60,474 bases of DNA from a virus: IMG/VR virus record IMGVR_UViG_3300045988_152007, positions 1 through 60,474 of that record. One strand, given 5' to 3'. Under the pieces are notes generated by a model. The model saw only the letters and a program-made list of their open reading frames with translations, made no database searches and was not told where the DNA came from. Below are positions 6,192 to 55,453 of the stretch, piece after piece. The translations under genes and the position numbers were made by a program. Positions within the stretch are counted from its first letter, which is position 1; each line of letters opens with the position of its first letter.

Positions 6192-6839
6192 TTAAGCATA
6201 TTTCCATTTAAACTTAGCAGCTGTATTTCGTTTACATTTGCATACTTCAGAAATATGTTGTTTTATAGTAGTCATTTTACAATTAGTTAATTTATTTTCT
6301 ACCATAAATTTAGCTGCTTCAGTTGTTGATGGAAAAGTCCTTAAATAATTATCATTTAAATCATACATATTAATTATTTTCCCATACTTATTTTGAACTA
6401 TTTTAGCATTAGGAATAATATCAATTTTATATAATTTTAAAATTTTAGAAACTGAATCTTCACTAATATTTAATTGTTTAGCAGTATCTACAATACATTG
6501 TAAATTCTTATATGTTTCGCATACTAAATCATAGTCAATATATTGTTTGCCATCTCCGCCAATTGTAGCGTTATATCCATATTTAAAAGAACCTAATTTT
6601 TCAATCCAATAAACTTCTTTATCATTAAGTTCTTCTAATGGACATTCCTCTAACTCTTTAATAGAAAAATTTTCTGAACCATATTTATTCATTGCGTCAT
6701 ATAAAGGACGTTTTTCACATCTAGGTTTTTTATAATCTTTAAGATGTTCTTTCCAACGTTCCTAAATATTATTTTTTACTGTTTTACCAACATAAATTTT
6801 TCCATTAATATTATTTGTTATCTAATAAATGTATGCCAT
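6192..6839 (-). CDS. GIY-YIG homing endonuclease (I-TevI-like) with two in-frame TAG
   Basis: N-terminus MAYIYQITNNINGKIYVGKT...ERW matches the I-TevI GIYQI...KVYVGS...KRW motif; a TAG sits at the conserved Q (6822-6824). Confidence 0.8.
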
Positions 6840-6918
6840 ATCTAAATGACTCCTTTAATAAATAATTGTGAAATTAGTTAAAACACTATCGCCACGAGAA
6901 GGCTTTCACATAATAGCG

Positions 6919-6991
6919 AGCCGGCAGACGGATTCGAACCCCCGACCTATTGATTACAAATCAATTGCACTACCAACTGTGCTATGCCGGC
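6919..6991 (-). tRNA. tRNA-Thr(TGT)
   Basis: Acceptor GCCGGCA/TGCCGGC, D-arm GCACAGTTGGTAGTGC, loop TTTGTAA, T-loop TTCGAAT; no CCA encoded. Confidence 0.7.
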
Positions 6992-7031
6992 ATTTAAGAG
7001 AGAATTTATTTTTCCCTCAATTTCTATATAT

Positions 7032-7060
7032 ATTATATAAAATTTTTTTTAAATTTTCAA
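7032..7060 (-). promoter_or_regulatory. sigma70-type promoter TTGAAA-N17-TATAAT (minus strand)
   Basis: Motif family member. Confidence 0.6.
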
Positions 7061-7932
7061 ATTATACAACATAAATAATGTGCTAATTCTAATTGATATT
7101 CTTGCTTAAAGAAAAAAGGAACTATTGAAAAAATTATAGTGAATACATCATTTCGACCGCTTAATTTAAAGCTGTTATAAAATAATGGTAAATATTTTTC
7201 ACATATTTCATTATAAGTAATTTGATCATTCTTATAATGAAAATTCTTTAAAGGATCATCACTTTTTAATGTTTTACATTTTAAAATATCTTTTGAAGTT
7301 ACTTCTTCATATAAAGTTATTTTAGCAAATCCATTATAATGTTTATATAAATATGGACAAATAATCGGGCAAGGGTCATTGCATAAAAGTTCAAATCTAT
7401 TTCTTACTTCTATTGGAATTGATTCTAAAAACTTAAAATCTTTTATTTGTCTTCGAGGTAAAACAATTTTATCATATTTATTTAAAAGAGACAAATAATC
7501 TGTATTTTTATTTGAAGCTATTATACTTCTTTTAATTTTAAATTTAGGATATTTATTTCTTATATATTCTTCTAAAATAGAGGAAGAAACTAAAATTGAA
7601 TTATTTTCATTTTCACATAAGGAAACGATTTTATTACAATATCTATCATACAAGTCTTCTTTTGTTAATAATGGATTTGTTAAGGTTAAAGCAATTTCTA
7701 TATTATTTCCATAATAAAAATCAATAATTTCTTTTATTTTTTCTAATGAAGGTTGATAGCCTTGATTGACAGTTCCTCCATTCCAAATCATATTTGGGAA
7801 TGTATCGAATATACTCTCTATAGCTACATTAAAATTGAAACATTCTGGAGCTGTCTATTGTAATTCTAAAAGAGTTTTATATATATTAAATCCAGTATAA
7901 AATCCTGGACAATTTAAATTTATTTTTTTCAT
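7057..7932 (-). CDS. hypothetical protein, paralog family A (NIWNGG / FYxG motif), one in-frame TAG
   Basis: ORF 7057..7791 extends upstream through a TAG to ATG ~7932 (MKKINLNCPGFYTGF...). Confidence 0.55.
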
Positions 7933-8269
7933 ATTTAAATTATATAATATTTTTTACTTTTTATCAAATATAAAATTTTGAATAATTTGTATTCTCCATT
8001 TTTTGAATTAACTAATTTTGATATTTTGTGTTAGTAGGAGCATTTAAATAAAAATTTTTTATTTCTGAAATTTTATTTAAAAGTTCATTTCTTTTTACTA
8101 TAAAATCAAAATTACTGTAATTATTAAAATTATTTTTTATATCTAAAATATATGGTTTATACATTCCTAGCTATAAACTTTGTTTATAACTTTTTGTTTT
8201 ATAATATTCAATTATTATTATTAGATCAATAAAAGATTTATAAATTAATTTATAATAATTTTTTAATTT

Positions 8270-8710
8270 ATAATAATTTTCTCGTAATCCAGTCTAAAAT
8301 AATCTATTACTTTCATTAATTAATTGAGAATAAATGACTGGTAAATTTTCTTTAACTATATCTTCATTAATTTTTTTTATTTCTAAAGTAAATTCATTAT
8401 CACTTAAATAATGATAAGGGAATAACCATCTATAATAACTATAGTTATTATTATAAAATAAATTATAAATAAAATGTTCTCCTGTATAAATCCGCCTTGA
8501 AGGATTCCAATTTATAATATTAAATTTTTTCATAAAATTATTAGACTATTCCTATGGAATTAAATTTAAATCAAAATTTGAAATTTTTTTTAATTCTTTT
8601 TCCATATTTATAAAAGAAGAATAGATTTCAATAATATCTATATCACTTGTGTTATTATTTATTCCATGCTGGTAAGAACCATCGATCAATCCATATAAAA
8701 AATAATCCAT
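8270..8710 (-). CDS. hypothetical protein (~146 aa) with in-frame TAGs
   Basis: Frame containing ORF 8294..8533 extends to ATG 8708-8710 (GAGGT upstream) and downstream to TAA 8270-8272. Confidence 0.5.
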
Positions 8711-8712
8711 AG

Positions 8713-9348
8713 TTACCTCAATAGTATAGTTAAATTTTTTGTATGTTCAATTAATTTTTTTATTTTAAATATTGTTAAATGAAAAGCCCATTTATCAGGA
8801 TAATGGTCAGTATCATGTTTATAATAAAATTTTGGTAAATGATAATATTTAGGATATAAGATATTAAATATTTCTTCATCTGTTTGAAAATTTATATAAA
8901 ACTATAATATTGATTTATATAAATTTTTATTTGGCTTTATTATAGCTATTCCGCCACTTAATCGTCCTTTAGATTCCTAGTTATCATATACTTCATAAAA
9001 ACTACCATCTGGATAATCAAAAATATTATCAATATTTTCAGCAATTAAAATATCAGCATCTATAAAACAAATTTTTTTGTACTAAGTTAAAGTATAAATA
9101 AAAAATTTATTAGCGGTATCTTTATAAAAATTAGAATCTCCACAAAAATAAATTGGCTATTCTATTATTTTATAATTTATATTATTTTTTTTTAAAATTT
9201 TAAAATAAATATCTGATACATTATTAGTAGTTAATAGTAAAAATGGATATTTACTATTAACTTTTTTTAATGAAAAATATAAGGCACAAGCACATTTAAT
9301 ATATTTATCAGTTGTTGCAAGTGTTACAAAGCAGTATTTGTCGTTCAT
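8713..9348 (-). CDS. family 8 glycosyltransferase-like protein, 4 in-frame TAG
   Basis: N-terminus CFVTLATTDKYIKCACALYFSLKK; downstream DADIL and GGxA motifs appear when TAG is read through. Confidence 0.55.
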
Positions 9349-10249
9349 CAGTGACTCCTAAAATATCTGTTACACAATGTTCAATAAAATCATATTGGTA
9401 TTCTGGTAATAATAAATATCGAGCATAAGTACATATATTATCAATATAATTTAAAGAACGTCCCTCTAATTTATACTATTCAATACCAAGAGGATAATAC
9501 AAATTATAAATATTATCTAATGTTACTGTATTCTTATAAGCAATAACTTCTGGGCTATTAACACTTTTAACTGCTTTACAATTTAATGTATAAGGTTTTC
9601 CATAAGATAAAGCATATTCACTATTGATTTTATAATGATTAATACGATTTGGACAATTAGGAATACAAATTGCATTACATAATAATTCAATTTTATTTTT
9701 TAAATTTAAAGGAATTTGTTTTAAAAAATCTATATTAGAATTTAAATCATAATCTAAACAAATAAATTTATATTGAGCTTTCTTAATTTCATTTAAACTT
9801 TGTTCTAAATTTGTAATTCTTTTAGTGGTTGAAGAAATAAAATTATACTTATTATATTTATTTCTAATATATTCTTCTAACCCTTCATTATTAATTACAA
9901 TTTCATTCAATCCATTATTTCCAATAGCTAAAATGAGATTTTCAAAACGATTATTATAATTTTCTTTAGTTAATAACTAATTTGTAAAAACTAATCTGAC
10001 CGCAATATTATAAGAATTATAAAAATTAAAAATTTCCTCAATATCTTTCTTTAAAGCCTAATGAGTTTTAAAATTAGTAAAAGTTCTGCCGCCTTCCCAA
10101 GAACAAAATTGGAAATTTCCATAACAAGCATGAATTGTAATATTTTTATTAAAAATTTCTGGCTATTTATTAAGTTGTTCAATTGTTAATTTATTTAATT
10201 GGTATGTTTCATACATACCTGGTAAATTAAAATTAATCATTACTTATAT
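9308..10249 (-). CDS. hypothetical protein, paralog family A, in-frame TAGs
   Basis: ATG 10247-10249 (MINFNLPGMYETY...); the frame includes ORF 9476..9910, which ends in TAG. Confidence 0.5.
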
Positions 10250-10250
10250 T

Positions 10251-11099
10251 TTATCTCCTTATAAATAATTCTTGAAAGGCATATTCTTTAAATTCTGGTT
10301 TAATAAAATAATTAATTAAAAATAGACCGTATTCATTTTCATTGTTAGAGAAATAATCTATTAAAAAATTAGTGATACCCATAGGGATATAAATATCTTT
10401 AATTTCTTTAATCGTTATATATTGTTTATTATTTATAGAATTTTTACAATTACAAAATGTAGGTTCAAATGTATAATTTAATATATTATTATTTTCTACT
10501 ATTGGACATTGAAAATAATTTTTACATTTTGGATTACAAAGATTATTAACTGGAATTATAATATTTTCTTTATTATTAATTTCATTTAAATATTGCTGTG
10601 AAGTTTTAAACTCGTTAGGGATTATTATATATAATGGATTTAAATTTTGATGAAAATTATTTATAATATCGGGAGTAAGAGGATATAAGATATTAGCATT
10701 TTTAGAAATAACATATTTCAAATTAGGAAATTTGTTATTTATATAATTTAATAAATCTAAATTACTAATTTCAAAAATGCAATTATTTGGTAATAATTTT
10801 AAAATTACATTACTCATTACATCATAGAAATCTGATTTTTCTAATAAAATATTAGAAAAATCTAACCACAAAGGTAAATTACTTTGCTTAATTATTAATT
10901 CTATATTAGGATACAATAAAGTATCACCAACCATGTTATTTAATCCTCCATTCCAAATATTATAAGGGAATGTCCCTCTAATATAGGAAAAAACTATGTT
11001 TTTATCAAGAAGCCAATTAGTATGGCTTCTTGATAAATTAATAAATTTATCATTTACAGTATGAAAATAGTAAAAATCAGGTAAGGTAAATTTAATCAA
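10251..11099 (-). CDS. hypothetical protein, paralog family A (282 aa)
   Basis: ORF track; FPYNIWNGG motif shared with 7057..7932. Confidence 0.65.
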   Translation of the reverse strand: MIKFTLPDFYYFHTVNDKFINLSRSHTNWLLDKNIVFSYIRGTFPYNIWNGGLNNMVGDTLLYPNIELIIKQSNLPLWLDFSNILLEKSDFYDVMSNVILKLLPNNCIFEISNLDLLNYINNKFPNLKYVISKNANILYPLTPDIINNFHQNLNPLYIIIPNEFKTSQQYLNEINNKENIIIPVNNLCNPKCKNYFQCPIVENNNILNYTFEPTFCNCKNSINNKQYITIKEIKDIYIPMGITNFLIDYFSNNENEYGLFLINYFIKPEFKEYAFQELFIRR

Positions 11100-11102
11100 T
11101 TT

Positions 11103-11360
11103 TATTCTCCTATAGAATATAGCTAATTTGTTAATTTATTTAATTCTTTTGAATAATCTATATTTAAATCTTTTAGTCGTAAATCCTAATTCTATAATAA
11201 ATTTGCTAAGGTATAAATTATTTTTTTATTGACTTCTGGATTTGGTTCTTCTAAAGTAACCATATTATTGTATATAACAAATAATAAATCCATATATCCC
11301 TTATTTTCTTTTATAATATTATTTGTAATTTCTTTTAAAATATTATCTAAATTATCCATT
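11103..11360 (-). CDS. small hypothetical protein (MDNLDNILKE...) with TAGs
   Basis: Hand translation; start overlaps the stop of the upstream gene. Confidence 0.3.
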
Positions 11361-12641
11361 TAAATCATACCCCAATTCTATAGCTATGTTTTCTATTACT
11401 TTTGGTAATATTTTTTGATCTTTCGCACTTTTCAAAACTCCAGTTTCAAAATATAATTTAAATAAATAATTATATTTTTCTTGAAATAAATTACAAACTG
11501 ATAAACAAGGGATAGAAAAATCACCATAAGTTTCTATCTAAGCTCCCAAACATCCTTTAATACAGACATCTCTACACCAGCATTCTAAACATCTTGGAGC
11601 ATAAACAGGGTTAAAAGATTTCATTCCTATATAAGCTGTGGCATTATCACTTATTAAATCAATTATCTCTGTTTTTTCATCATTTATTTTAAAATGTCCA
11701 CCAATTAAATGATTATAACAAGTACGATGACAAGGAACGATAGCTAAATCTCCAACCCTTATATGGACAGTAGACTACAATGCACAGCTTATTCGGTTAT
11801 GTCTGTCTTCTTTATCTGATAAATTCATTAATCGTATAGGATCTCCATTGTGCTCATTAAATGTAGGAGTATTATTAGCCCCATCCCCTTTAAACATTGC
11901 ATAAGCCATAGTATTAATATCATTATTGCAATCATTCAATCTATCTTCAAAGATATGTTTTAAGAATTTTTTATAATTCTCTATAGATTCTTGAGTCCAA
12001 TTATTATTTCGAACTTCTAACATATAAGGAGTTTTCTACCATGAATTGTATTCTTTTAATTTCTTTTTAAACCAATCATAAGTTTTAATGGCTTTATCAA
12101 CATTTTGGCTAGAAATCATAGGATGGAAGCCATCATTATTTTCTGTAGCAAATTCAAATAATTTATTAAAATATTCATCATTTAAATCTTTATGTTCTCT
12201 AAATTCAGTGCTATACGGCCCATCAGTAGAAAATGAAAAATGAATTTCTACATTTATATCTTTCATCTTTTGGATATATTTTTTTATTTTTATTACTTTT
12301 TCATTATCAGAAATAAAACTACCATTAGTAGGTATTACTAGTTTACCTTTTTCTTTTATTTTATAAGCAAATTCATACCATTTTTTTAAATACGGAAAAA
12401 ATACATCTAGTATTTCAAAAATTAATCCATCATAAAATAAGTCTCCGGCGAATAATGACCATTCTAAAGGTTTTATTTGTTTTTTATCAAAATAATCTAA
12501 TAATAATTTTAAATTATCTAATATCTAAGAATTAGAAAAATGTTCTGGATATAATTCTTTGCCATAATTAGTTATATAACAATAATCACATTTTTGATTA
12601 CAGTCTTGTCTTATAATTAATTCTAATATTTCATTTTCCAT
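11352..12641 (-). CDS. radical SAM / SPASM-domain protein (anSME-like peptide-modifying enzyme type), in-frame TAGs
   Basis: N-terminal CNQKCDYC and C-terminal Cys-rich CHRTC...CLECWCRDVCIKGC; merges ORFs 11775..12023 and 12036..12266. Confidence 0.55.
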
Positions 12642-12721
12642 CTTTTTTAATTCATGATTAAAAATAAAATTCTAAAATAGAATATTTTCTTCCTATTGGA
12701 AATCAATAGACGTTGTTATCA

Positions 12722-14155
12722 TTATTTTTCCTCCAAAACTTCTTCAATAATTCCATTACAATATCTTCTTAAAAATCCACTATCTCTAAAGAAATAAGAA
12801 CCAGTACTGATTAAACTGTTAAAAAAGCAAGAATGTATAGGTACTAATAATAATGCTGCTTTCATTAAAAATTTATCATCATTAAATTTTTGACTTATCT
12901 AATGCACTTCTCGTAAATTACATAATAAAGAAACAATCTAATTATATACATAAAAAAAACTAGATACAGATAAAGTTTCAAATAAAAAACAACAATTTTT
13001 TATATCTTCATCTTTATCTTTCAATGGATTTATATAATTATGATGATTTGCGGCAAATTGCTTAATAATCCCAATTTTATCATTAGTATTAATATATTCT
13101 GGATTAGTATCATAAAGAGAACTCTAACAATTTACTAATGTTCCATCATATAAAAGTTTTAAGCTTCCTGTTTTTTCTCCGCAATATAAGAATGGAGTTA
13201 AGTTTCTATTATAATTCTTTAATTCTTTATTAGAGAATGCTAAAACTTTATCAAGAGCTTCATCTAAATTAGAACATTCCAAATTTTTTAATAAAAATTT
13301 TTTTGCTTTTCGAGGTAAACACAATAATCCTTCAATAGAGTCTTTATCTGGATTATTAATTTCTGGATAATGTTCTCCAATTGATTTACAAATTTTTATA
13401 AAATTACTCCAATTAATACCATCAATGCTAGAAGTATTAATAGGTAATTCGCTAGAGAAATTTATAGTATTTTTGATAAAAACAGATTTATTTAGATTTA
13501 AATTAGTTAAATATTGAATTTTTTCATTAGCCTAAATAAAATACTATTCTATTTCTTTGTAATTATTATTAAAATGATTTATGAGTTCATTACTAATAAC
13601 TCCATGAGTATTAAGAGCAATAGTAATATTATTAAAACGAATTGTATTTAAAGTTTCTATTAAATATTTTAAATTATTATATACTACTTTAGAATTAGCT
13701 CTTCTTACATTATCAGTACTATAATCTCCATCATAAGAAAACTAAATACAAATAAATGAATGTTTTTTAGTTAAATTATCAAAAGTTTTTAAAAAATCAA
13801 TTATTTTATCAGTATTAGCCATACCATTAGTAGAAGTAAAAAATTCATTAATATTGGGACATAATTCAAAAAAATCTTTTAAATTTTTAGTAAAATGTTC
13901 TAATACTAATGTAGGTTCTTGACCCCAAAAACTTATTTTATGGATATTTAATGGATCAACTTCTAATTTTTTCATAACATTTTTAATATTCTATAAATAA
14001 CTTCCATCTTTAAGAGCCTTTATAGTCTATTCTTGTAACTATTTACTATATTCATTTACAGCCTAAGCTGAATGACAATATTTACAATTTAAATTACATC
14101 CACAAGCTCCAATAATAGATAATTCTTCTATTGAAAAATCCGATATATATTTCAT
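12722..14155 (-). CDS. radical SAM protein 2, in-frame TAGs
   Basis: GACGCNLNCKYCH cluster near the N-terminus; ISFWGQEPTL glycine-rich SAM motif; merges ORFs 13124..13324 and 13742..13975. Confidence 0.5.
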
Positions 14156-14175
14156 TCCTTTTTCTCCTTTAAATG

Positions 14176-14691
14176 TTAAGTGTGACTAGAACCGTAATGA
14201 CTAGAGCATCCATGAGATGTACACCAGGTTTGATTAACCCCTGACCAATAGGAAGAATGATAACCTGAACCATCATGAGAAGAATTATAAGAAGTATCCC
14301 ATCCTGCTCCATAATTAGAACTATCCCAACTACTATTATATCCACTACCTCTATGGCTAGCATTATAACTCGCATCATGAGCGCAAGTATCATTTATGCT
14401 TCTAATTGTAGTAGTAAATCTATTAAAAATAATAGGACTAATTAAATCTCCTGCCGAAGGAGGATTTTCACTAATATTTGCTCTTGAACCAACATAACTG
14501 CTACTGGAAAAAGATTCTATATACTTATTTAAATTCTGAGCTAATTGAGCCATAGCTTGTGTTGACTATCCTCCAGGAGTCGCTTGAAAATCACTCTAAC
14601 TAGGGAAAAATTTTTTTCTTGCGGTATTTAAATTAGTAAAAATAGTCTAAATATCACTCCAATTTATTTTAGAGTTTGAACTAATTGCCAT
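14176..14691 (-). CDS. Ser/Gly/Tyr/His-rich small protein with Cys-containing C-terminus (possible modified-peptide substrate)
   Basis: ORF 14176..14553 extends through TAGs to ATG 14689-14691 after GGAGG. Confidence 0.5.
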
Positions 14692-44846: not shown

Positions 44847-46490
44847 TTAAATCGCGATTGACCTATTGTAACTATAAAAACGCTCAGGATAACGACGAAT
44901 AGCATAAGTATAATCAGTAATTATAGTAGAATAAGGATCATTAGAAATTATCTTTTTAGCCTCTACATTTAAATCATCTTCTTCAATTAAAAGAGCCACC
45001 ATACCATAATAAGGACCGCCATCCAATCGAATTGTTTCAGCTCTAATATCAGTATCTCCAAGATACTTTAAATATTCTTTATTAGCAAGACATTCACTAC
45101 AAATATAATGTTCATCATAATCAATATTAATAGTTTGATTTTCAATATGTCCAACAAATACAGTAGTGAAATCTTCATCAAAATGAGCATCCTCACAGCA
45201 TAAGCATCTATGCAAATCATGATAACAATCTTCGCAAACCAATTCACCATCTACTTCAATTGCATCATTTGCATTAACTCGTTCGCCACAGCAATAACAA
45301 TAAGTGGGTGGATCACAGTCTTCACAAACCACCATTTCAGTATCATCAGACCAATAAGCATCCTCGCCGCAGCACATACAAGTCATTAAACCAGAATAAT
45401 TAATTGTAAATGTACGATATTTATTGTTTGGTGAATTAATTGAAAAAATTCCATAATTCTCTGTATTACCAAAATCATTATACATTTCATTTGTTGCAAA
45501 ATCCAACAGAAAATGATTATTCTTATCTTCTTTATCTTGCCAAGCTCCAATATAAGAGCAACTTTCCAAACTCTCTTGTGGCTTTTTTCTGTTATAACGC
45601 CATTCAGTTTTTTCTTCAACCAAATCAACAAGCCAATTTACAAGAGCTTTATCAAATGCAATATTATAATAAGGATAAGATTTTACAGAACAAATAGCAT
45701 TCGGATGGACAATAATTAATTCTCTCCAGCTTTTAGAAGTCCATTCAATAGAAGTGTTTGCTGGATAATAAGGTTTAGTAGTAATATATGCTATAACAAC
45801 TAATGGACTATTCATCATCTCAATAGTACCAGCACGATAACTTCCTGGTCCTTGAGTCCAGTTCATACAACTTTCCCATCCATTTGCATTATCGCTCATA
45901 GTCATATAATCCAAAGGATGAATAGATAGAGTAAATTTGATTTTAGATTTGCGTACTTCGGTAATACGTGAAATATGATTGCGGAAAATTTCAAAATCAG
46001 GTAAATCAAATTCTTTAGCCATTTTTTGAAGAACTTTCATTACCTTGGCTCCTTCTGGAACTTTAACTGCCTTACCATCTTTATTATGATAAATAAATCC
46101 TTTAGCAACTCTATTAGTAAAAAGTTGATAAGCTTGAATTAAATTATATATTGCATGTTTTGTTGCATAACTATCGTCAAAATAAATATTATTAAGCTCA
46201 AATAACTTACGAAGATTCTTAATAAAATTAATACCAGGATTAAAACTATAGAGATATTCACTAACTTCTCTTATTTTTTTATTATCTCCATCTTCAACCT
46301 GGATTTCCTTCTCCAGCATTAACTTTTCACCAAAAATATCAAACAGAGTTTGCTTACTCTTATTCCATTCTCGAAGGATATAATCAAGAGGGGCTTTAAG
46401 TTTAACGGGGGAATTAATGCCACCCCATTTTTCAATATATTCAGTAATATATTTCTTATCTTGGGCCGTTAATGCTTCATAAGGTGTCAT
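44847..46490 (-). CDS. paralog family B protein (547 aa)
   Basis: ORF track; SIHPLDYMTMSDNANGWESCMNW motif plus C-terminal CxxC repeats. Confidence 0.7.
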   Translation of the reverse strand: MTPYEALTAQDKKYITEYIEKWGGINSPVKLKAPLDYILREWNKSKQTLFDIFGEKLMLEKEIQVEDGDNKKIREVSEYLYSFNPGINFIKNLRKLFELNNIYFDDSYATKHAIYNLIQAYQLFTNRVAKGFIYHNKDGKAVKVPEGAKVMKVLQKMAKEFDLPDFEIFRNHISRITEVRKSKIKFTLSIHPLDYMTMSDNANGWESCMNWTQGPGSYRAGTIEMMNSPLVVIAYITTKPYYPANTSIEWTSKSWRELIIVHPNAICSVKSYPYYNIAFDKALVNWLVDLVEEKTEWRYNRKKPQESLESCSYIGAWQDKEDKNNHFLLDFATNEMYNDFGNTENYGIFSINSPNNKYRTFTINYSGLMTCMCCGEDAYWSDDTEMVVCEDCDPPTYCYCCGERVNANDAIEVDGELVCEDCYHDLHRCLCCEDAHFDEDFTTVFVGHIENQTINIDYDEHYICSECLANKEYLKYLGDTDIRAETIRLDGGPYYGMVALLIEEDDLNVEAKKIISNDPYSTIITDYTYAIRRYPERFYSYNRSIAI

Positions 46491-46550
46491 GATTATTTAC
46501 TCCCTTTATTTTTTCTATAAATATTTTATAATATTTTTTTATAAAAATAA

Positions 46551-46586
46551 AAAAGGGATAAAGAATCAAATCTTTATCCCTTTTTT
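46551..46586 (-). terminator. hairpin AAAAGGGATAAAGA...TCTTTATCCCTTTTTT
   Basis: Stem plus T-run downstream of gene 46595..47095. Confidence 0.55.
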
Positions 46587-46594
46587 ATCTATGT

Positions 46595-47095
46595 TTAATT
46601 ATCTTTTGTCTGATTATATGTCACAATAGGTTCACAAACGAAGCAACACATAGCACAAGAAACTTTAACAGCTTCTTCTGAATCATGTCCAAGATGAAGG
46701 GCTGTCAAAGCATAAGGAGCACCAGCACCGATGGCATAATAATCTTTAATTTCTCTAACCAAATATCCACAAATCTGAAAAAGATGACCTCCAAAAGCCA
46801 TTAAATAACTATTCTTAATATCACGAGTATTAGCAATATCGCCTTTCCATTTACCAAATTCAGCAAAATAATTAAGAATTTCTCTCTCTGTAGCATTAAG
46901 CGGCTGATGATTTTCCATATATAGCCACATAAGGCTACATTCATCTGCATTACCAACACTACCAACAATCATATCATTTAAAGAAATAATTTTAGTAAAG
47001 TTAGTATTGGGGTCTTTTTCCCATCCATTAGTTAAAATACTATCTGCAGACATTTGAATATTATTATCATATACCTTCGCGGCAACTACGCTCAT
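46595..47095 (-). CDS. HslV/proteasome-beta-like Ntn-hydrolase family protein
   Basis: ORF track 166 aa; AIGAGAPYALTA and VGSVGNADE resemble the HslV motifs AIGSGGPYA and GFAGGTADA. Confidence 0.45.
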   Translation of the reverse strand: MSVVAAKVYDNNIQMSADSILTNGWEKDPNTNFTKIISLNDMIVGSVGNADECSLMWLYMENHQPLNATEREILNYFAEFGKWKGDIANTRDIKNSYLMAFGGHLFQICGYLVREIKDYYAIGAGAPYALTALHLGHDSEEAVKVSCAMCCFVCEPIVTYNQTKDN

Positions 47096-47120
47096 TTTAT
47101 ATTACCTCATTTAATATTAT

Positions 47121-47709
47121 TTTATTTATAAATTGTTCCCTTTAACAAATCGGGTAATTCATTATTAAGAACTTCTTTCCACCCAATTATATTACCTTCA
47201 AAACCTTCAAGGTCTTTGAAATTGCCAGTTGGGCAAGTTTGACTAATCTTACTATCTACAACAAGCTCAATTAATTCATCACAAATAATACCGTGAATTA
47301 AATCCCAGTTTTTTGTATGGCGGTCTTGCTTTTCATCAGCTTTAACGACCTTAATCTCTGAACCATCTTCACAAATAAAAATCCATTTTGAACCAATCTT
47401 ACCGAAATACCTTCCAAGAGCACAAGCAGTATAGCCATCATCAGTAGCTAATGTGCCGTTCTCCTAAATGGTTAAATAATTATGAATTAAATCCCATTGA
47501 GGACTATCAGTAGATGTAATATCAGTCCACCATTCAAAGGGTTTATTAGTATGGTCGATTCCGCAATTACAATATTCTGTAGGACCGTATTCGATTTCTG
47601 ACCTGCTTCCGCCATCAGCACTATAACTTTTTATGTTAAAAGCATTTACTGGCATCATCATTAAAGCAACCATAGCGATTACAAGAATGACATTTAAGAA
47701 TTTTCGCAT
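47121..47709 (-). CDS. secreted hypothetical protein (signal peptide), one TAG
   Basis: ORF 47464..47709 (MRKFLNVILVIAMVALMMMPVNA) ends in TAG and continues to TAA ~47121. Confidence 0.5.
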
Positions 47710-47802
47710 ATTAATTCTCCTTCAATATAAAATAAATAACTAGTAAATAATACTATATTTCATATGAAAAGTCAAATTTAATAGCTAAAAAGAATTGACC
47801 AC

Positions 47803-48582
47803 TCAAAAGCGGTCAATATTATTTACAGCATCATCCATTTTATCATGCCAGAGGAAAATATCTTCCAAAGGGTCGATACAATTAAAAAAGATAATATTAT
47901 GCTTATTAATAAATCTATCACAATGATAATGACCAAAGAGCCATACATCATATGTAATCATATTCTTAATTTCTTCAAGCCATTCTTCCATAGAAGTATC
48001 TACGGTAGATTGATCTACTATTGAAAGGAATTTATCAACTGGCCTAAGAGAATAAGGGCAGGTGTGTGATAGTACAAGATCAAAATGCTTATTAGTTTGT
48101 CGAATAAGCATTTCAGCATCAACTTTTTCTTTATTATTTAATTGTTCATCTTCCCACCAAAGCAAATTGTTTTTAAGACGATAATATTTATCAACAGAAT
48201 AAGCACCACCAATAACTAATGTACGATATTCTCTATCTTCGGTTTTAAGATAATAAATCCCGTAATTATCAAAATATCTAATCAGAGGGTGAGTCGGCTC
48301 ATACCATACATTAGCCTGAACATTGCTATCCCAAACACGCTCCATACCTTCAACGTTTTCAGGACGTACTTCATGATTGCCATGCACGCAATAAATAAAA
48401 TATCCAAACTGGCTTGCATATTCTTTCTTCATATTATCTCTGAATGCACTACCAGTATTAAAACCGCAGTCTCCAAGGATAATAATTGCGTAGTCTTTTG
48501 GATTTAAAATTCTAAACATTCTTGCATTAAGCCATGTGAAATCACCATGACAATCGCCTCTAATCAGATAGTCCTTGAACAT
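47803..48582 (-). CDS. calcineurin-like metallophosphoesterase
   Basis: ORF track 259 aa; motifs GDCHGD, GDCG, GNHE. Confidence 0.7.
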   Translation of the reverse strand: MFKDYLIRGDCHGDFTWLNARMFRILNPKDYAIIILGDCGFNTGSAFRDNMKKEYASQFGYFIYCVHGNHEVRPENVEGMERVWDSNVQANVWYEPTHPLIRYFDNYGIYYLKTEDREYRTLVIGGAYSVDKYYRLKNNLLWWEDEQLNNKEKVDAEMLIRQTNKHFDLVLSHTCPYSLRPVDKFLSIVDQSTVDTSMEEWLEEIKNMITYDVWLFGHYHCDRFINKHNIIFFNCIDPLEDIFLWHDKMDDAVNNIDRF

Positions 48583-48595
48583 TGAAGTTCCCTCC

Positions 48596-48787
48596 TTACG
48601 TATTTTCTTCTTTAGCCAGCTCTTCCTTTAATTTTTCTACTTTTTCTATAACTGCACTAAGCACAACAGCTTGAGCCCCAAATCTGGTAAAATGTTCAGT
48701 CAACCATTTACCAAGATCATCAAAATTGTTTTCAATTTCTTCAATATCTCGACTATCAATTTCAATAGTCATATTATCTTCAGACAT
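48596..48787 (-). CDS. small acidic hypothetical protein (63 aa)
   Basis: ORF track. Confidence 0.45.
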   Translation of the reverse strand: MSEDNMTIEIDSRDIEEIENNFDDLGKWLTEHFTRFGAQAVVLSAVIEKVEKLKEELAKEENT

Positions 48788-49595
48788 TTAACATTTCCTT
48801 TACAATTCTTTTTTTCATAATAAGATAAACAATCTTATTCATAAAATCTTCAAGTTCTTCATTACCTTCATCCTTGGTCTTAGAACAATAATCATCAGCT
48901 ACTCTTGTAATATTATTAATAGCAGTATTTGCTACAATTCGTGCAGTTTCAAGATCATAGTGATAATTTTTTACAGCAAGAAGATAATCACCCCTTGGTG
49001 CCTGAAGACAATCAGCATACTTAACCTCATCAATATAACGTCCAAGATACTGTTCGATACGAAGCAAATGCATAAGCTGCTTACTATCATAACCATATGT
49101 ATCAATCAGATGAGTTTTAGTAGGATATCTATGCTCCATTGCATGATATTTTTCCATAGCAATACCCTTCATTGTCTTAACTGCCTTGTAAGGATTATAA
49201 CGTGCAATAGCTTCACGCTCATTAAGCAGTGCCTGCCACTCATTCCAATACACGCTTGATGCCATTTTATAAGGTGTGAAGATACATTCAAGATATGCCA
49301 TATTCTGTTTCTTCAAACAATCAATGAACAAACGAATATCTTTAAAATCAATGTGTTCATCATTAGGAAGAATTTTGGTATAAGACACTGGCTTTTTATT
49401 CAATACAATATCTTCAAATGAAGGAAGAACAATAAGCCGGGTATCTACATCAGACAATTGAGTATCAAGACCATAGTTCTGGCTACCATAAGCCATTAAG
49501 CTAACCCAATTTTCTCCTCTGACATTAACTGCTTCTAAATGAGTTTCTACTTTATCCATAACCCATTTATCTAAATGGTAATTCATAATTATCAA
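48780..49595 (-). CDS. nucleotidyltransferase-fold protein (Pol-beta superfamily)
   Basis: ORF track 271 aa; GS...DVD motif (AYGSQNYGLDTQLSDVDTRLIV). Confidence 0.55.
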   Translation of the reverse strand: MIIMNYHLDKWVMDKVETHLEAVNVRGENWVSLMAYGSQNYGLDTQLSDVDTRLIVLPSFEDIVLNKKPVSYTKILPNDEHIDFKDIRLFIDCLKKQNMAYLECIFTPYKMASSVYWNEWQALLNEREAIARYNPYKAVKTMKGIAMEKYHAMEHRYPTKTHLIDTYGYDSKQLMHLLRIEQYLGRYIDEVKYADCLQAPRGDYLLAVKNYHYDLETARIVANTAINNITRVADDYCSKTKDEGNEELEDFMNKIVYLIMKKRIVKEMLNV

Positions 49596-49599
49596 CTCC

Positions 49600-49845
49600 T
49601 TAAATCATTGAAAACTGTTCATCTTCAAAAATTCCTTCATATACAAATCCAATAGTATCAGAATAAACATTATCAATGGCATCGTATTCTCGCACGTGTG
49701 AATAGCCCCAATAATATCTACTCTCTCCTGCGGCTTTGCGAATAATTTGATTGGCATGTTCAGCATCAAGGGCAGCAACTAGACTAAATCCATGCCACCC
49801 TACCTGTGGTTCAATCAGATACACCTTACATTTATATTCAGTCAT
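49600..49845 (-). CDS. hypothetical protein (81 aa)
   Basis: ORF track. Confidence 0.5.
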   Translation of the reverse strand: MTEYKCKVYLIEPQVGWHGFSLVAALDAEHANQIIRKAAGESRYYWGYSHVREYDAIDNVYSDTIGFVYEGIFEDEQFSMI

Positions 49846-49847
49846 AC

Positions 49848-50078
49848 TTATTCCTCTACAAAATGAATAATTAAATCATAACCTTCTTCCGTTTCAACCA
49901 TTTCATATGGATGATGAAGATCAATTTTATATCCATCTCGCTTTTGAATTTCAACACCTTGAGAACCAATAGCATCAGGGAAAATACGAATCCTATTAGA
50001 AGTATAATTCCAAGAGGAAATAAGAATCATTCCGGCAGCTATAATCAATAGGATTGTTATAACACACTTTTTAATCAT
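49848..50078 (-). CDS. small membrane protein (76 aa)
   Basis: ORF track; hydrophobic N-terminal segment. Confidence 0.5.
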   Translation of the reverse strand: MIKKCVITILLIIAAGMILISSWNYTSNRIRIFPDAIGSQGVEIQKRDGYKIDLHHPYEMVETEEGYDLIIHFVEE

Positions 50079-50316
50079 TTGCAGTCATATCCTTCCATGT
50101 ACAAGTATTAAGCCAGTATCGTGTCTGATTACTACCATCTTTAGAACTCGCCGCTAGCCCCTGACCGATGAGGCCACGCATAACACCTGAAACCCCTTGT
50201 GATGTAATATCAAAATCATACTTACGCTTTGCGAACGCTGAAATTTGCTTTGCAGTAAGAGTGCCGCTTTCTTTAAGAATTTTAATTACCATTTCTTTTT
50301 TTCCCATTACATCCAA
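50071..50316 (-). CDS. hypothetical protein (81 aa)
   Basis: ORF track. Confidence 0.5.
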   Translation of the reverse strand: MDVMGKKEMVIKILKESGTLTAKQISAFAKRKYDFDITSQGVSGVMRGLIGQGLAASSKDGSNQTRYWLNTCTWKDMTAND

Positions 50317-50762
50317 TCCTCGCTTACCCTTTCATTAACCGGTCTGACTACATTAAGTTCAATAGGTTCCCAATTGTAATCAGCCCAGTGAAGCCAATCA
50401 GTTGCTGTCCATTTATTATGTTCTTCAACTAACTTATCTATTTTCTTCATTTGGCAGTTACAATCAATGACAATACGTTCATATTTCTTATATTGTTTCT
50501 TGGCGTCTTTGTATTCAGGATTTTCCTTACCCACCTGAAGGATGGGAAGATATTTATTCATGTCCTGAATTGCTTCATGGCGTTTAGTTTCGTATCGAGC
50601 TTTTTCAGCTTTGAGAGTTTCAAAATGATTATGAATGCTACTTTGCATTAGAGTTGAATGAAACAACTCTTCAAGATAATCATTCAACTTATCTTCAGTA
50701 AGATAACCAAGCTTCTGCTCTTCATAATAAGGACCATATGTTAGTCTATAAATGCGTTCCAT
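50307..50762 (-). CDS. hypothetical protein (151 aa)
   Basis: ORF track. Confidence 0.55.
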   Translation of the reverse strand: MERIYRLTYGPYYEEQKLGYLTEDKLNDYLEELFHSTLMQSSIHNHFETLKAEKARYETKRHEAIQDMNKYLPILQVGKENPEYKDAKKQYKKYERIVIDCNCQMKKIDKLVEEHNKWTATDWLHWADYNWEPIELNVVRPVNERVSEDWM

Positions 50763-50841
50763 ATCTCTCCCATCCTTTCTATATATATTATATCAAATTT
50801 TTTATAAATTTTCGAGTATTCAATTTTGGCAAGAATTTAAA

Positions 50842-52506
50842 CTAAACATAATCATCAGGATAAGTCGCCTTTAGCCGCATCTTGGCATCAGCAATTCTTT
50901 CAAGGGACAGAAATGGCTCCCATACCTTTTTATCTGCCTTGTCAACATCAATATACTGAAAATCGCCCCACAAGTCTGGCTCCTTCGGTGCATCACCAAA
51001 ATCATAATCTTCATAACAATCATCACAGACATCAATGGGATTTCCAACATCACGACGATGCTTACCATTAGGAGTTTTTACTTCAAACATATAGGGAAGA
51101 GCCTGCTTCTTGAAATCATAATCAAGCCATTTAGTTTCTCCGCAACAGCTACAAGTCTGAGTGCGGCCATCTGCACACCAGCTACAATAAGTTGCACCGT
51201 CCCCTTCACAGAACCAAGCATCTTCACTATCAATCCAAGAGCCACAATCATCACACTGGACTTTGCCTTCACAGGTTGCACATACGACTTTATCACATTC
51301 TACAAATGCATCTACATTTCCACTCGGATCAGCTTCATAGCCTTTACCGCAGCACATACATTCAGCTACACCAGAATAGTAAACTTCTACTTCTTTTACT
51401 TCTGGATTGATATAAGCATAATGATTATCATAATAATCATTATACATAGCTCCAGTTCTCATGCGGATATAAACCTGACCAAAATCAGTATCATTGCTCT
51501 GATTCTGCCAAACCTCATACATCTTATCGTCGTAATGCCAGCCCATATTCTGTTCAGCTAACTGCTTAATTTTATTCAGCACATAATCACGCAGATAAAT
51601 ATTGTTATAAGGATACTGCTTAATTTCAGTGATAATATCCTTATTAACAATATAAAGACACCGCCAACGCTTATTACTCCAAGTTCTTTTGTCACGGTCA
51701 ATAGGACAATAAGGATGCTCGGATTCAACATATGCTTCAAGGATGACAGGAGAATTCATCATTTCAACAGTGCCAAGACGATAATCACCGCCCTGATACC
51801 AGTTCATACAACTCTCCCAATCACAAGCATTATCACTCATAGTAAGATAATCAAGCGGATGAATAGAGAGTACAATATCAGCATTAATCATACGATCATT
51901 CAAAACACGCGAATGAAGAATACGAAACTGCTCAAATGCTTCTTTATCCAGCTCAAACCAATCGACAATTTTAGCCATCATTCGCATCAGCTTCATATCA
52001 CTCTTCAACTCAAGCGGCTTCGAAGTATCTGCATGCGGACCACGGCGAATAACAACAGATTTGCGACCCCAATCAAACATATATACATTTTTATTGGCTA
52101 CGAGAGATTCACTATCAAGGCAATGGTCAATCATGCTACAACAATTAACACGTTCATCTTTATCAAGAGTGGTATCCATCCAAGAATAATAAATATTAGT
52201 AATTTGCTCGTAAGAATCAATGAATTTTTTGACGTTTGCTAATTCAGGATTATTATAAATTTCTTCATACATTTCACCGAATTTATCCATCAAATCATCT
52301 CCAGATGCCTGATAGGAAATATGGTCTTCGACCATCAAATTATTACCAAGCAACTCATACAGGTCAGGCTTTTCAGCAGCCCAAAACCGCAGAAGATGAT
52401 TAATTTCATCTACAGTGCAGTAATTATCAGAATGAAGGTACTCTTTAATATAATCATGCAGCAGATTCTTTTCTTCTTCTGGAATGAGTGTCCTCAAATC
52501 TGTCAT
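50842..52506 (-). CDS. paralog family B protein (554 aa)
   Basis: ORF track; SIHPLDYLTMSDNACDWESCMNW motif plus C-terminal CxxC repeats. Confidence 0.7.
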   Translation of the reverse strand: MTDLRTLIPEEEKNLLHDYIKEYLHSDNYCTVDEINHLLRFWAAEKPDLYELLGNNLMVEDHISYQASGDDLMDKFGEMYEEIYNNPELANVKKFIDSYEQITNIYYSWMDTTLDKDERVNCCSMIDHCLDSESLVANKNVYMFDWGRKSVVIRRGPHADTSKPLELKSDMKLMRMMAKIVDWFELDKEAFEQFRILHSRVLNDRMINADIVLSIHPLDYLTMSDNACDWESCMNWYQGGDYRLGTVEMMNSPVILEAYVESEHPYCPIDRDKRTWSNKRWRCLYIVNKDIITEIKQYPYNNIYLRDYVLNKIKQLAEQNMGWHYDDKMYEVWQNQSNDTDFGQVYIRMRTGAMYNDYYDNHYAYINPEVKEVEVYYSGVAECMCCGKGYEADPSGNVDAFVECDKVVCATCEGKVQCDDCGSWIDSEDAWFCEGDGATYCSWCADGRTQTCSCCGETKWLDYDFKKQALPYMFEVKTPNGKHRRDVGNPIDVCDDCYEDYDFGDAPKEPDLWGDFQYIDVDKADKKVWEPFLSLERIADAKMRLKATYPDDYV

Positions 52507-52571
52507 TTTAATTCACCTTTTCCCTTTAATTTATATATATATTTTATAATATTTTTTTATAAAAATAAAAT

Positions 52572-52593
52572 AAGGAGCCTTTAACAAGGCTCC
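52572..52593 (-). terminator. hairpin AGGAGCC-TTTAACAA-GGCTCCT
   Basis: Seen directly; downstream end of gene ..53504. Confidence 0.45.
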
Positions 52594-53504
52594 TATAAAA
52601 GTAAATCATCTATTGTTAAATCTTTATATTTCGTATATGGTATTCTAATTAATGGAATATTATTATCTCTACACCATTGAGTTTTTATATTGTCTCTATA
52701 TTGCATATCATCTATTGACTCTCCCCAATTTTTTGTAGGAGCATCTATAGAATGCTATATTCCATCATATTCAATTAAATATTTATTATCAATAAAAAAA
52801 TCAAATCTTAATTTTTTATTAGTTTTAGGATTAATACAATCATCAAAACTCTTTTCTCTTACATAAGGGATATGATATTCTTCTAATATCTATTGTATTT
52901 TTAATTCTCCATGAGATATTTTTAAACATCCACAAGATTGAGTGTCACCGCTACTTAAATGACTTCCTCTCACTGAAACTATATTACCACAATCACATTG
53001 ACAAATCCAATATTTAATTTTAGGAATTGATTTTTCTGTATCTAATTTTATAACAGTTAATAATCCAAACCTTTTACCTACTAAATTAACAGTAGATGTT
53101 TCAGAAGTTCTTTCTTTCTAATAGCATCCGCAAGATTTAGTATGACCTGTATTTAAATGATTTGTATTTACTATCACTTTATTACCACATTTACATTGAC
53201 ATTCCCATAAGGCACTATTAGGCATACGTCGTAAAACAGTTAAATATCCATAAACTTTTCCAGTTAAATCTTCAGATTGATTAGCCTCTCTTGTTTTTTC
53301 TCTTTGTAAACAACCACAAGACTATGTAGGTTTAGCTCTATTTAAAGAAGCACTTGATATATCAAGTTCATTACCGCAATCGCATTTACAATGCCATAGA
53401 ATACGATTATAACTATTTTTTTTACCCGTATCATATTCTACTAACAATCTACCAAATCTTTTTCCAGTTAAATCTTTCTTTGCTGGCATATAAAAATCCT
53501 CCAT
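52581..53504 (-). CDS. free-standing endonuclease-like protein: three W.C.C.CGN...SCGC zinc-binding modules plus a C-terminal Vsr/DUF559-like EYDG.QH domain; in-frame TAGs; 3' end uncertain
   Basis: ORF 53322..53504 ends in TAG and the frame continues; repeats were hand-translated. Confidence 0.45.
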
Positions 53505-55451: not shown

Positions 55452-55453
55452 AT

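Follow-up and report, generated by a model that had tools for sequence, protein, structure and literature searches.

Homing endonuclease genes are thought to persist in self-splicing introns and inteins or between genes, and several described systems involve homing endonucleases or small ribozymes at transfer RNA (tRNA) genes. SegB is encoded by a free-standing GIY-YIG gene among the tRNA genes of phage T4 (PMC2330249; also PMC13096335); the gene is present or absent between related phages and is preferentially inherited in mixed infection (PMC2330249). I-Ssp6803I, a PF11645-family enzyme with its target in a tRNA anticodon loop, is encoded in a cyanobacterial tRNA-fMet group I intron of 655 nt, where a 150-aa open reading frame (ORF) leaves ~200 nt for the ribozyme (PDB 2OST; PMC1995217). 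Theta ribozymes, defined by a cleavage site within ±5 nt of a tRNA 3′ end, begin with their G1 at tRNA 3′ ends that mostly do not encode CCA, and they occur in TAG-recoded gut phages together with DRB0094-family RNA ligases (Kienbeck et al. 2024, PMC10879173). Here, we compare these systems with a 60,474-nt stretch of viral DNA (IMG/VR record IMGVR_UViG_3300045988_152007, positions 1 to 60,474; "the window" hereafter means this whole stretch), which comes from a ~188 kb, TAG-recoded (code 15-type) human-gut phage and holds three GIY-YIG, three PD-(D/E)XK, two HNH and one multi-zinc-ribbon endonuclease gene. We establish the gene families, exact insertion sites, polymorphism among relatives, conserved RNA pairings and TAG usage of this locus. 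Our preferred explanation, to which we give a probability of roughly 65%, is that two tRNA blocks were colonised by three kinds of mobile homing-endonuclease cassettes, each kind suited to tRNA genes.

The locus suggests two further solutions to the persistence of such genes. A nuclease gene that brings its own self-cleaving ribozyme could settle directly at the 3′ end of any tRNA, and one placed in an anticodon loop could be closed there solely by an RNA helix fitted to the tRNA in question. As both patterns are found again in many gut-phage contigs, they amount to testable rules rather than one-offs. Our literature search, of incomplete coverage, found no paper that joins HDV (hepatitis delta virus)-like or theta ribozymes with GIY-YIG or other homing endonucleases, and no description of ribozyme-free PDDEXK_5 inserts in phage tRNAs. 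Two arrangements therefore appear to be new, in that we did not find them described: a theta-type ribozyme and a GIY-YIG gene as one cassette at the N73–CCA boundary, and I-Ssp6803I-family genes in anticodon loops closed only by an anticodon-matched helix.

Eight of the nine nuclease genes lie in two tRNA blocks (block A at ~1-7 kb, and 31-37 kb) that make up ~24% of the window (simple binomial p ~8e-5), and most of the families read from the sequence alone in an initial annotation hold up in profile searches. The three GIY-YIG genes match Pfam PF01541 (E 1e-10 to 1e-12; 41-46 bits, curated cut-off 22.6) and share the invariant residues Y3-I4-Y5, Y16-x-G18, R28, E80 and N90 (alignment A9), with NUMOD1 in two of the three proteins. 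The three PD-(D/E)XK genes, previously counted without positions, are located at 4150..4575, 5108..5551 and 33991..34428/34494; they match PF11645 (PDDEXK_5; E 1e-17 to 1e-25; 64-90 bits, cut-off 26.1), and their profile matches I-Ssp6803I (PDB 2OST) at E 1.9e-14. Both HNH genes match PHROG HNH families, and the motifs 'HHKDGNHFNN..CPNCH' and 'HHLNPQEK..CANCH' are visible in the HNH proteins; in Pfam, the gene at 1703 stays under the HNH cut-off (18.3 against 21.4) and the gene at 35099 gives no HNH match. The latter had been placed at 35109..35676, an out-of-frame interval whose length is not a multiple of three; the actual ORF is 35099..35662. The reported overlap of its stop codon with tRNA-Lys is real, but is larger than the single nucleotide claimed, since the TGA (35101..35099) covers nt 1-2 of the tRNA. 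The ninth gene, described as Vsr-like, does encode an endonuclease (PHROG endonuclease families, 1e-59), with a C-terminal part that matches PHROG 'homing endonuclease' (4.6e-24) and 'intron encoded nuclease' (1.3e-20). For the Vsr label, its single profile match is sub-threshold (DUF2726, 18.8 bits, cut-off 24.7, E 0.0014), and a search of PDB sequences gave no match.

Of the nine genes, seven adjoin or split a tRNA gene, the exceptions being the HNH gene at 1703 and the zinc-ribbon gene; the initial annotation had put this as "almost every one". The term free-standing had been applied to all of them and is wrong for the PD-(D/E)XK genes, each of which sits inside the anticodon loop of a split tRNA (Tyr, Pro or Val). 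These split tRNAs, the TAG recoding and a set of ribozyme-like elements had all been missed.

The ribozyme-like elements belong to the GIY-YIG genes. All three GIY-YIG inserts start at the base following the tRNA discriminator and have the same order: a 52-57 nt ribozyme candidate, a ~26-nt spacer with a ribosome-binding site, and the ORF. At tRNA-Thr, the empty site of a relative (L012) reads GCCGGCTC directly followed by CCATTAGCC, and the window holds 734 nt between these halves. The first 52-57 nt are conserved across the three window cassettes and a cassette of another relative, L001 (alignment A7), and contain the elements P1-P2-P3-L3-P3′-P1′-(P4)-J4/2-P2′ in the order of HDV-like ribozymes, with a G1.U wobble and a C first in J4/2 (A7, A10). 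P1 (5-7 bp) opens with G1.U, P2 has 6-9 bp, P3 is CC/GG around a 7-nt L3 (UYCNCGN), P4 is almost absent and J4/2 is CUAA, giving a conserved core CCUYCNCGNGG...CUAA. RNAalifold, run on 13 copies independently of any descriptor, predicts P2 and P3, and seven of its nine pairs show double compensatory changes. A descriptor search over 0.97 Mb (both strands) returned 26 matches (19 unique), against 1, 0 and 4 when the first C of J4/2 was replaced by A, G or U, and in 22 of the 26 matches G1 falls at 0 or ±1 nt from an ARAGORN-called tRNA 3′ end.

Relatives of the GIY-YIG genes show the same coupling. Among the 17 close relatives in IMG/VR, 14 carry the element ~78-86 nt upstream of the ATG and behind tRNA-Thr, Gln, Ser, Leu or Pro, and 13 of these 14 place G1 at 0 or ±1 nt from a tRNA 3′ end; GIY-YIG genes of more distant kinship are without the element. 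Three states are seen at tRNA 3′ ends: a tRNA with CCA (L012, L001), a tRNA followed by the element (L003, L018, L113 and window 30987..31040), and a tRNA followed by the element and a GIY-YIG gene. In L003 and L018, the element after tRNA-Met (33105..33161) stands alone, with no GIY-YIG gene.

We interpret the 52-57 nt elements as minimal HDV-like, theta-type ribozymes, with cleavage activity predicted from their sequence. The GIY-YIG cassettes are inserted exactly between the discriminator base and the CCA or trailer, and the ribozyme would cut at its own 5′ end, leaving the tRNA 3′ end free for CCA addition and releasing the nuclease messenger RNA (mRNA), so that insertion would do little harm. 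Two points count against this. The descriptor demanded P1 and P2 pairing, which means that its matches are by themselves no independent proof of pairing, and no Rfam HDV-type family matches at E <= 10 on 6820..6925 or at E <= 1 on 30300..37700. The lack of an Rfam match, the near absence of P4 and a weak P1.1 in the 'UUCUCGU' variants (A7, A10) would also suit regulatory or terminator hairpins, or DNA recognition sites of the GIY-YIG enzymes. We consider this distinctly unlikely, given the nested double pseudoknot order with G1.U and the first J4/2 C in all copies, the near loss of descriptor matches when another base takes the catalytic-C position, the co-variation of P2 and P3 and the coincidence of G1 with tRNA 3′ ends, a context in which published theta ribozymes were validated in vitro (PMC10879173). 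The arrangement differs from T4 SegB in that the GIY-YIG gene lies behind a self-cleaving ribozyme candidate (its cleavage being predicted), exactly at the N73–CCA boundary and with in-frame TAG. With the theta ribozymes of PMC10879173 it shares the position of G1, the mostly missing CCA, the TAG-recoded gut phage and the accompanying DRB0094-family RNA ligase, but it goes beyond that paper, which has 0 mentions of endonucleases: here the ribozyme candidate leads a GIY-YIG cassette, and candidate and gene appear to move as one 734-nt unit (L012 vs window).

In two other contigs, related elements adjoin PD-(D/E)XK-split tRNAs. L083 has an HDV-F-prausnitzii-like element (1922..1989; 38.4 bits, cut-off 44) directly after such a tRNA, and in L087 (from 1972) a theta-type element and a GIY-YIG start motif come immediately behind a split tRNA, which makes this a double invasion.

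The PD-(D/E)XK inserts are 441-480 nt long and encode ORFs of 140-147 aa, leaving just 21-45 nt of non-coding sequence each, compared with the ~200 nt of the I-Ssp6803I intron. Rfam searches of the split tRNAs at permissive thresholds gave no group I or II intron and no small self-cleaving ribozyme, with no Intron_gpI match at E <= 1 (window block) or E <= 0.1 (18 loci). The last base of the insert may be A, C, G or T, unlike the terminal G of group I introns. With no ribozyme core, too little non-coding room and no fixed terminal G, a group I intron is ruled out.

Archaeal bulge-helix-bulge introns can carry LAGLIDADG homing endonuclease genes, such as I-DmoI in ribosomal RNA. The inserts resemble these introns in being ribozyme-free, in carrying a homing ORF and in having ends that pair mutually and with the exon; they differ in their continuous helix, in their bacterial host and in that splicing is hypothetical. 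An archaeal or eukaryal bulge-helix-bulge tRNA intron proper (two 3-nt bulges around a 4-bp helix) is ruled out by the continuous, bulge-free helix.

The arrangement recurs at other viral loci. A protein-alignment search gave 80 viral loci of PD-(D/E)XK relatives, and in at least ~25 of them ARAGORN's intron mode places the ORF between tRNA halves (a cruder stem- and half-matching script gave 39 of 84 loci, some false calls included); at other loci, an intact tRNA-Tyr follows just behind the ORF. The main clade comprises the Pro and Val inserts of the window and the non-Tyr loci; in it, the two ends of the insert pair mutually, in a helix that continues in register into the anticodon loop (33:37, and 34-36 with the last three insert bases). 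Across 21 non-identical elements, pairing at helix positions 2-11 amounts to 81%, with four to six pair types per position; shuffling the partners lowers it to 51.5 ± 3.5%, and 0 of 5000 shuffles gave as high a value. The 43 G.U pairs, as against four A.C mismatches, point to selection on the sense-strand transcript and not on duplex DNA. Main-clade inserts separate nt 36 from nt 37 and end in three bases that match the anticodon, across seven tRNA types (among them Asn AAC or AGC, Asp GAU or GGC, Ser-GCU AGC, Thr-UGU ACA, Val GUA and Pro CUG); in the window's tRNA-Val insert, the final GTA pairs with anticodon UAC. A division of the main clade into junction classes 34/35, 35/36 and 36/37 was dropped, because comparison of the tRNA bodies shows the ARAGORN junctions to be arbitrary, with 36/37 fitting throughout. 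The top-strand cut of I-Ssp6803I is said to have been placed by Bonocora and Shub in 2001 beside the anticodon, after nt 36, which matches this insertion point.

The Tyr clade follows another pattern. It inserts after nt 34 or 35, and the long-range helix between its insert ends is offset by ~5 nt, out of register with the loop. In the window, the Tyr insert has a Shine-Dalgarno sequence, a TTG start and 140 codons, and its TAA stop is formed by tRNA nt 35-37. For the full ~560-nt Pro and Val precursors, the global minimum-free-energy structure is a cloverleaf with an extended anticodon helix of at least 15 bp; for the Tyr precursor, folded with a 5′ end short by 3 nt and without the acceptor stem, the long-range helix forms with the Shine-Dalgarno sequence paired. 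One split tRNA, in L093, stands beside a phage-encoded transfer-messenger RNA (952..1374).

The HNH genes would form the third kind of cassette, sitting between RNA genes; the one at 35099 may have supplanted the 5′ end of tRNA-Lys and carried in a new 5′ half. The RNA genes around the other HNH gene (1703) include, besides tRNA-Tyr and the suppressor tRNA of block A, a ROOL RNA (3430..4023, minus strand, 323 bits) and a RAGATH-33 RNA (1417..1529, minus strand, 139 bits). ROOL also occurs in L051 and L104, beside PD-(D/E)XK-split tRNAs.

To follow presence and absence, the same regions of IMG/VR and ENA relatives, all of them metagenome-assembled contigs, were compared with the window by BLAST (Table 1). 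The endonuclease-driven dynamics proposed in the initial annotation would be contradicted by an identical arrangement in relatives; instead, for each of the nine genes there is at least one close relative that cleanly lacks it and has conserved flanks, 84-100% identical. IMG/VR contig 164919 (L012, L018) lacks seven of the nine, while its identity to the window is 99.7-100% in block A and ~96% further along, and its empty sites are exact, giving intact tRNA-Pro, tRNA-Tyr and tRNA-Val. The copy of the 35099 HNH gene in L003 is 95% identical, though its flanks are just 84-93% identical. In L113, the tRNA-Pro insert differs from that of the window at 1 of 481 nt and the exons at 13 of 78, all 13 differences being compensatory and in the D and T stems; a near-identical insert in a diverged allele argues that the insert moves as a discrete unit. 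Relatives also have cassettes of their own: in L001, one HNH gene follows tRNA-Leu, another separates tRNA-Ala from tRNA-Asn, and a GIY-YIG gene follows tRNA-Glu; L002 has a PD-(D/E)XK gene in tRNA-Asn.

The relatives being metagenome assemblies, chimeric or collapsed contigs might in principle mimic such polymorphism, an explanation to which we give almost no weight. Identical junctions occur in independent assemblies of different studies (L116 and L115/L118 are 99.9-100% identical to the window over 5.4-5.9 kb), and the empty sites are precise to the nucleotide, each tRNA gene being whole again there. The comparison thus supports mobility of the nuclease genes. The cassettes may spread by homing between co-infecting relatives, which would produce the mosaic, and the nuclease targets assumed here are presumptive. 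A point against our preferred explanation is that some insertions are very recent (flanks 99.7-100% identical), leaving little time for selection. Separately, L001 has a 1.6-kb insert (1725..3300) with a DNA-methyltransferase-like ORF and a second ORF between a 79-aa ORF and tRNA-Phe, where the window is empty.

Table 1. Features of the tRNA blocks and of nuclease and RNA-repair-type genes in the window, with their occurrence in relatives (L numbers and six-digit numbers denote related sequences).
Feature	Position	Strand	Evidence and remarks	Absent	Present
HNH gene (HTH + HNH, no TAG)	1703..2149	-	PHROG HNH families 1.6e-27	L113, L114, L119	166471, 164919
Amber suppressor tRNA, anticodon CUA	2466..2540	-	ARAGORN 'tRNA-Pyl (cta)'; Rfam tRNA 49.2 bits		
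tRNA-Tyr 3′ part (class II, long variable arm, CCA)	4102..4152	-			
tRNA-Tyr 441-nt insert (nt 34/35) with PD-(D/E)XK ORF 4150..4575 (TTG start, 5 TAG)	4153..4593	-	PF11645 1.7e-17; junction unambiguous vs L012	L012, L011, L113, L114, L119	L115, L116, L118
tRNA-Tyr(GUA) 5′ part, ending G34	4594..4629	-	Intact L012 tRNA-Tyr 12090..12176		
tRNA-Pro 3′ part, nt 37-76 incl. CCA	5058..5097	-			
tRNA-Pro anticodon-loop insert with PD-(D/E)XK ORF 5108..5551 (no TAG)	5098..5576	-	PF11645 3.7e-19	L012, L011	Many ~188 kb contigs
tRNA-Pro(UGG) 5′ part, nt 1-36	5577..5613	-	Junction ambiguous up to 3 nt ('GGA'); intact L012 allele 11585..11661		
GIY-YIG + NUMOD1 gene (2 TAG)	6192..6839	-	Whole cassette 6184..6917 absent from L012	L012, L113, L114, L119, L120	L011, L115-L118
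HDV-like theta-type ribozyme candidate	6866..6917	-	G1 = first base past tRNA-Thr discriminator; A7, descriptor, RNAalifold		
tRNA-Thr(UGU), host of GIY-YIG cassette 1	6918..6991	-	ARAGORN; Rfam tRNA 67.7 bits		
Fourth theta-type candidate, after tRNA(CCA) 31041..31124	30987..31040	-	No nuclease gene behind		
GIY-YIG gene (1 TAG, codon 6, GIY motif)	31140..31748	-	Cassette 31132..31827, between tRNA-Ser and next tRNA; empty site L001	All five IMG/VR relatives	
Theta-type candidate directly after tRNA-Ser(GCU) (31828..31912)	31775..31827	-	A7, descriptor, RNAalifold		
GIY-YIG gene (5 TAG)	32385..33035	-	PF01541	All five IMG/VR relatives	
Theta-type candidate directly after tRNA-Met (33162..33235)	33105..33161	-	CCA not encoded		
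tRNA-Val 3′ part	33936..33975	-	nt 37-38 AU vs AC in intact alleles		
tRNA-Val 480-nt anticodon-loop insert with PD-(D/E)XK ORF 33991..34428	33976..34455	-	PF11645 1.3e-25	All five IMG/VR relatives	
tRNA-Val(UAC) 5′ part, nt 1-36	34456..34492	-	Alignment A1		
tRNA-Lys(UUU)	35026..35100	-	ARAGORN; 5′ half unlike L001 allele, homology resumes near anticodon		
HNH gene (5 TAG)	35099..35662	-	PHROG HNH 6.6e-25	Other IMG/VR relatives examined	L003 only
16-nt remnant, 5′ end of second (L001-type) tRNA-Lys allele	35750..35765	-	Upstream of HNH 35099		
RNA-repair-type genes	47803..48582, 48780..49595, 56047..56592		Metallophos, RlaP (PF10127), AAA_33 kinase		
Multi-zinc-ribbon endonuclease gene (5 TAG)	52581..53504	-	In otherwise TAG-free early block	L015, L016 (region 52573..53680)	L013, L014
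RNA ligase PF09414 (DRB0094 type)	L121 457..1827		~7 kb beyond the window's right edge		

Mobility of the genes is to be kept apart from reordering of the tRNAs. The initial annotation had proposed an ongoing, endonuclease-driven shuffling of the tRNA array, of which the mobile cassettes and local gain, loss and replacement of tRNAs stand, while shuffling in the sense of a changed order is not supported. The local changes are clear: the window lacks tRNA-Ala and tRNA-Asn, there is one more tRNA-Val copy in L001, tRNA-Lys has been rebuilt beside an HNH gene, and L018 and L020 hold the 3′ half of tRNA-Lys only. Yet the shared tRNA order is identical in the window, L001, L003, L012 and L018, with every change being an insertion, deletion or replacement in place, and no reordered tRNA genes beside nuclease genes were seen in the seven related contigs examined. 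Active reordering by the nucleases is therefore unlikely. The tRNA-Lys locus itself looks like a recombination hotspot. In the relatives without the HNH gene (L018 ~11270..11365, L020 ~13070..13170), the tRNA-Lys 3′ half is fused behind the 3′ end of another tRNA, and in L003 (4013..4145) a tRNA-Lys 5′ half is followed by a 58-nt piece that ends in a T-arm and CCA.

As for the fate of the split tRNAs, we see about an even chance that the tRNA is not restored and that the tRNA body with its closing helix serves as a processing and stability scaffold for the nuclease mRNA; in the Tyr type, the helix would also hide the Shine-Dalgarno sequence, giving translational control. Ponchon and Dardel reportedly engineered a 'tRNA scaffold' in which a stem-closed insert replaces the anticodon loop for stable RNA expression. 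The tRNA body, the extended anticodon stem and the exchange of loop for cargo are shared with the inserts described here, which are natural, have an mRNA as cargo and have a function that we infer. Several observations speak against such a scaffold: decay is not seen in the interrupted tRNAs, their 7-nt loops could be restored exactly, one insert (L083 2816..2920) is a clean hairpin that lacks an ORF, and the phage encodes an Rnl-type ligase together with a kinase, a phosphoesterase and RlaP. These fit real splicing equally well, and the encoded ligase and end-healing-type genes make sealing of a broken anticodon loop plausible.

The inserts might accordingly be ribozyme-free tRNA introns, with the helix presenting both junctions to a protein endonuclease and the phage ligase and end-healing enzymes rejoining the halves, a possibility that we rate clearly below the scaffold, with a small remainder left for other outcomes. 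It would account for the uniform 36/37 insertion in the main clade with its exactly restorable loop, for the co-variation of the last three insert nucleotides with the anticodon, for the sense-strand pairing signature (G.U 43 vs A.C 4), for the perfect cloverleaves of the interrupted tRNAs, including the allele with 13 compensatory differences, and for the ORF-less insert. The RNA_ligase (PF09414), AAA_33 kinase, Metallophos and RlaP genes of the same phage would find a use, the ligase family being 140-fold enriched in theta-ribozyme phages with its role unsettled (Kienbeck et al., PMC10879173), and EndA-type tRNA splicing enzymes are counted in the PD-(D/E)XK superfamily in a passage of PMC3424549. 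Against it stand the absence of a bulge-helix-bulge motif from the continuous helix and the geometry of that helix, in which the in-register arrangement puts the cuts 3 bp apart and does not match RNase III. Moreover, the Tyr clade has a different junction (34/35 or 35/36) and an ORF that runs into the exon, and in L060 a second, complete tRNA-Tyr comes after a 5′ half with nuclease gene, as though making up for a dead copy. We know of no bacterial protein-only tRNA splicing endonuclease. RNase III was considered as the excising enzyme and rejected, since the in-register helix permits staggers of 1, 3 or 5 nt only and a 2-nt stagger cannot restore a 7-nt loop.

In its boldest form, which is equally tentative, the proposal is a new class of mobile, ribozyme-free phage tRNA intron. 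Excision would fall to a protein endonuclease, perhaps the PD-(D/E)XK enzyme that the insert encodes, working on RNA, and resealing to an Rnl-type ligase set. If so, a bacterial system would offer its first example of protein-dependent tRNA splicing, and the RNA ligases that are so strongly enriched in these gut phages would have a role; theta ribozyme and GIY-YIG gene would make a second new 'harmless' homing cassette, with the tRNA 3′ end repaired instead of spliced. Rejoined split tRNAs would open bacterial protein-dependent tRNA splicing to experiment. Whichever the fate of the tRNAs, the locus bears on the roles of theta ribozymes and of the enriched phage RNA ligases, on the evolution of tRNA arrays in recoded phages and on the timing of nucleases through stop-codon recoding. 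It also exposes two annotation gaps, as standard tRNA finders do not see the split tRNAs and table 11 breaks up the ORFs that contain TAG.

The window has 31% G+C and nearly all of its genes are on the minus strand. An ENA scaffold of 188,411 nt (L116) is 100% identical to window 8000..2108, the related IMG/VR contigs are 105-157 kb, and megablast of window 30000..50000 against INPHARED phages gave no match. Under table 11, ORFs at ~7-40 kb are fragmented; with TAA and TGA as the only stops, they become long fused ORFs with many in-frame TAG codons (74 in the late structural genes). Six of the nine nuclease ORFs contain in-frame TAG, are truncated under table 11 and are open only if TAG is sense. 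TAG makes up 0.40 of the Gln-type codons in late genes, 0.32 in nuclease genes and 0.01 in early genes (41-60 kb). The early and late genes show two codon dialects: early genes (40929..60019) use CAG and CAA for Gln, with TAG at 1 of 103, and late genes (7057..30185) and nuclease genes use CAA and TAG, with CAG almost never.

The phage encodes a suppressor tRNA with anticodon CUA, G73 and an unpaired 1:72, the last two as expected for Gln identity. All three GIY-YIG paralogues have TAG at codon 6, within 'AYIY*ITN', at the conserved Gln of the GIY motif (YIYQITN). In I-TevI, this motif is GIYQIKN, with Gln at the position of the TAG codon. The interruptions by TAG alone, the CUA suppressor and the TAG at conserved Gln positions are those expected of code 15, and TAG is most likely read as Gln by this phage. 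That six of nine ORFs are broken under table 11 could otherwise suggest decaying pseudogenes with real in-frame stops; we find this scarcely credible and dropped it, as the interruptions are exclusively TAG and never TAA or TGA, TAG stands at the conserved Gln in three of three GIY-YIG paralogues, the late structural genes are full of TAG as well, the suppressor is encoded, and code 15 gut phages are an established kind.

The TAG-containing nuclease genes need the CUA suppressor tRNA for translation. Most cassettes, with in-frame TAG and late-type Gln codons, would then be made only after this tRNA becomes active, and the expression timing of the nuclease genes is probably set by TAG recoding. 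In Agate phages, a nuclease gene rich in the recoded stop lies within an early, standard-code block, which was interpreted as delaying expression (Borges et al., 10.1101/2021.08.26.457843); the zinc-ribbon gene of the window has the same setting. The Agate case involves TGA and a group I intron, whereas here TAG occurs in six of nine nuclease genes, none of them in a group I intron.

A few further elements of the window deserve mention. The zinc-ribbon gene adjoins one of three paralogous early genes (40929..42356, 44847..46490 and 50788..52506, minus strand), whose proteins of 475-572 aa share a core 'SxHPLDY..S.N...W.SC' and Cys-rich zinc-ribbon tails, and whose sole family assignment is one PHROG of unknown function. 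Several large late ORFs (11352..12722, 12722..14224, 14669..16672 and 38904..40247, minus strand) have CxxxCxxC motifs (radical-SAM-like) and lie next to glycosyltransferase-like and nucleotidyltransferase-like ORFs.

In the tRNA blocks, ARAGORN missed two tRNAs, and its 'short introns' of 15-100 nt in these arrays were mostly unconvincing. One missed tRNA, at 33372..33442 (minus strand; Rfam 48.5 bits), has a loop AUUUAAU that would give anticodon UUA; the 84-nt tRNA with anticodon CCA at 31041..31124 (minus strand) has a long variable arm and scores best as tRNA-Sec-like, at 39 bits and below the cut-off. A 148-nt tRNA-like gene (37012..37159, minus strand; Rfam tRNA 46.6 bits) has a 73-nt insert in the anticodon region with a T-arm-like hairpin; it is kept in L018, L019, L020 and L021, and its fold z-score is weak (-1.1). 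Four more tRNA-like elements (~37545..37425, ~37370..37240, ~32375..32275 and 33255..33325, minus strand) share a stem 'AAAGRCYY...RRGYCUUU', an 'ACAGCAA' box and a T-arm. One of them has a weak match to YrlA (Y RNA-like), and the L001 copy of another is called tRNA-Cys by ARAGORN.

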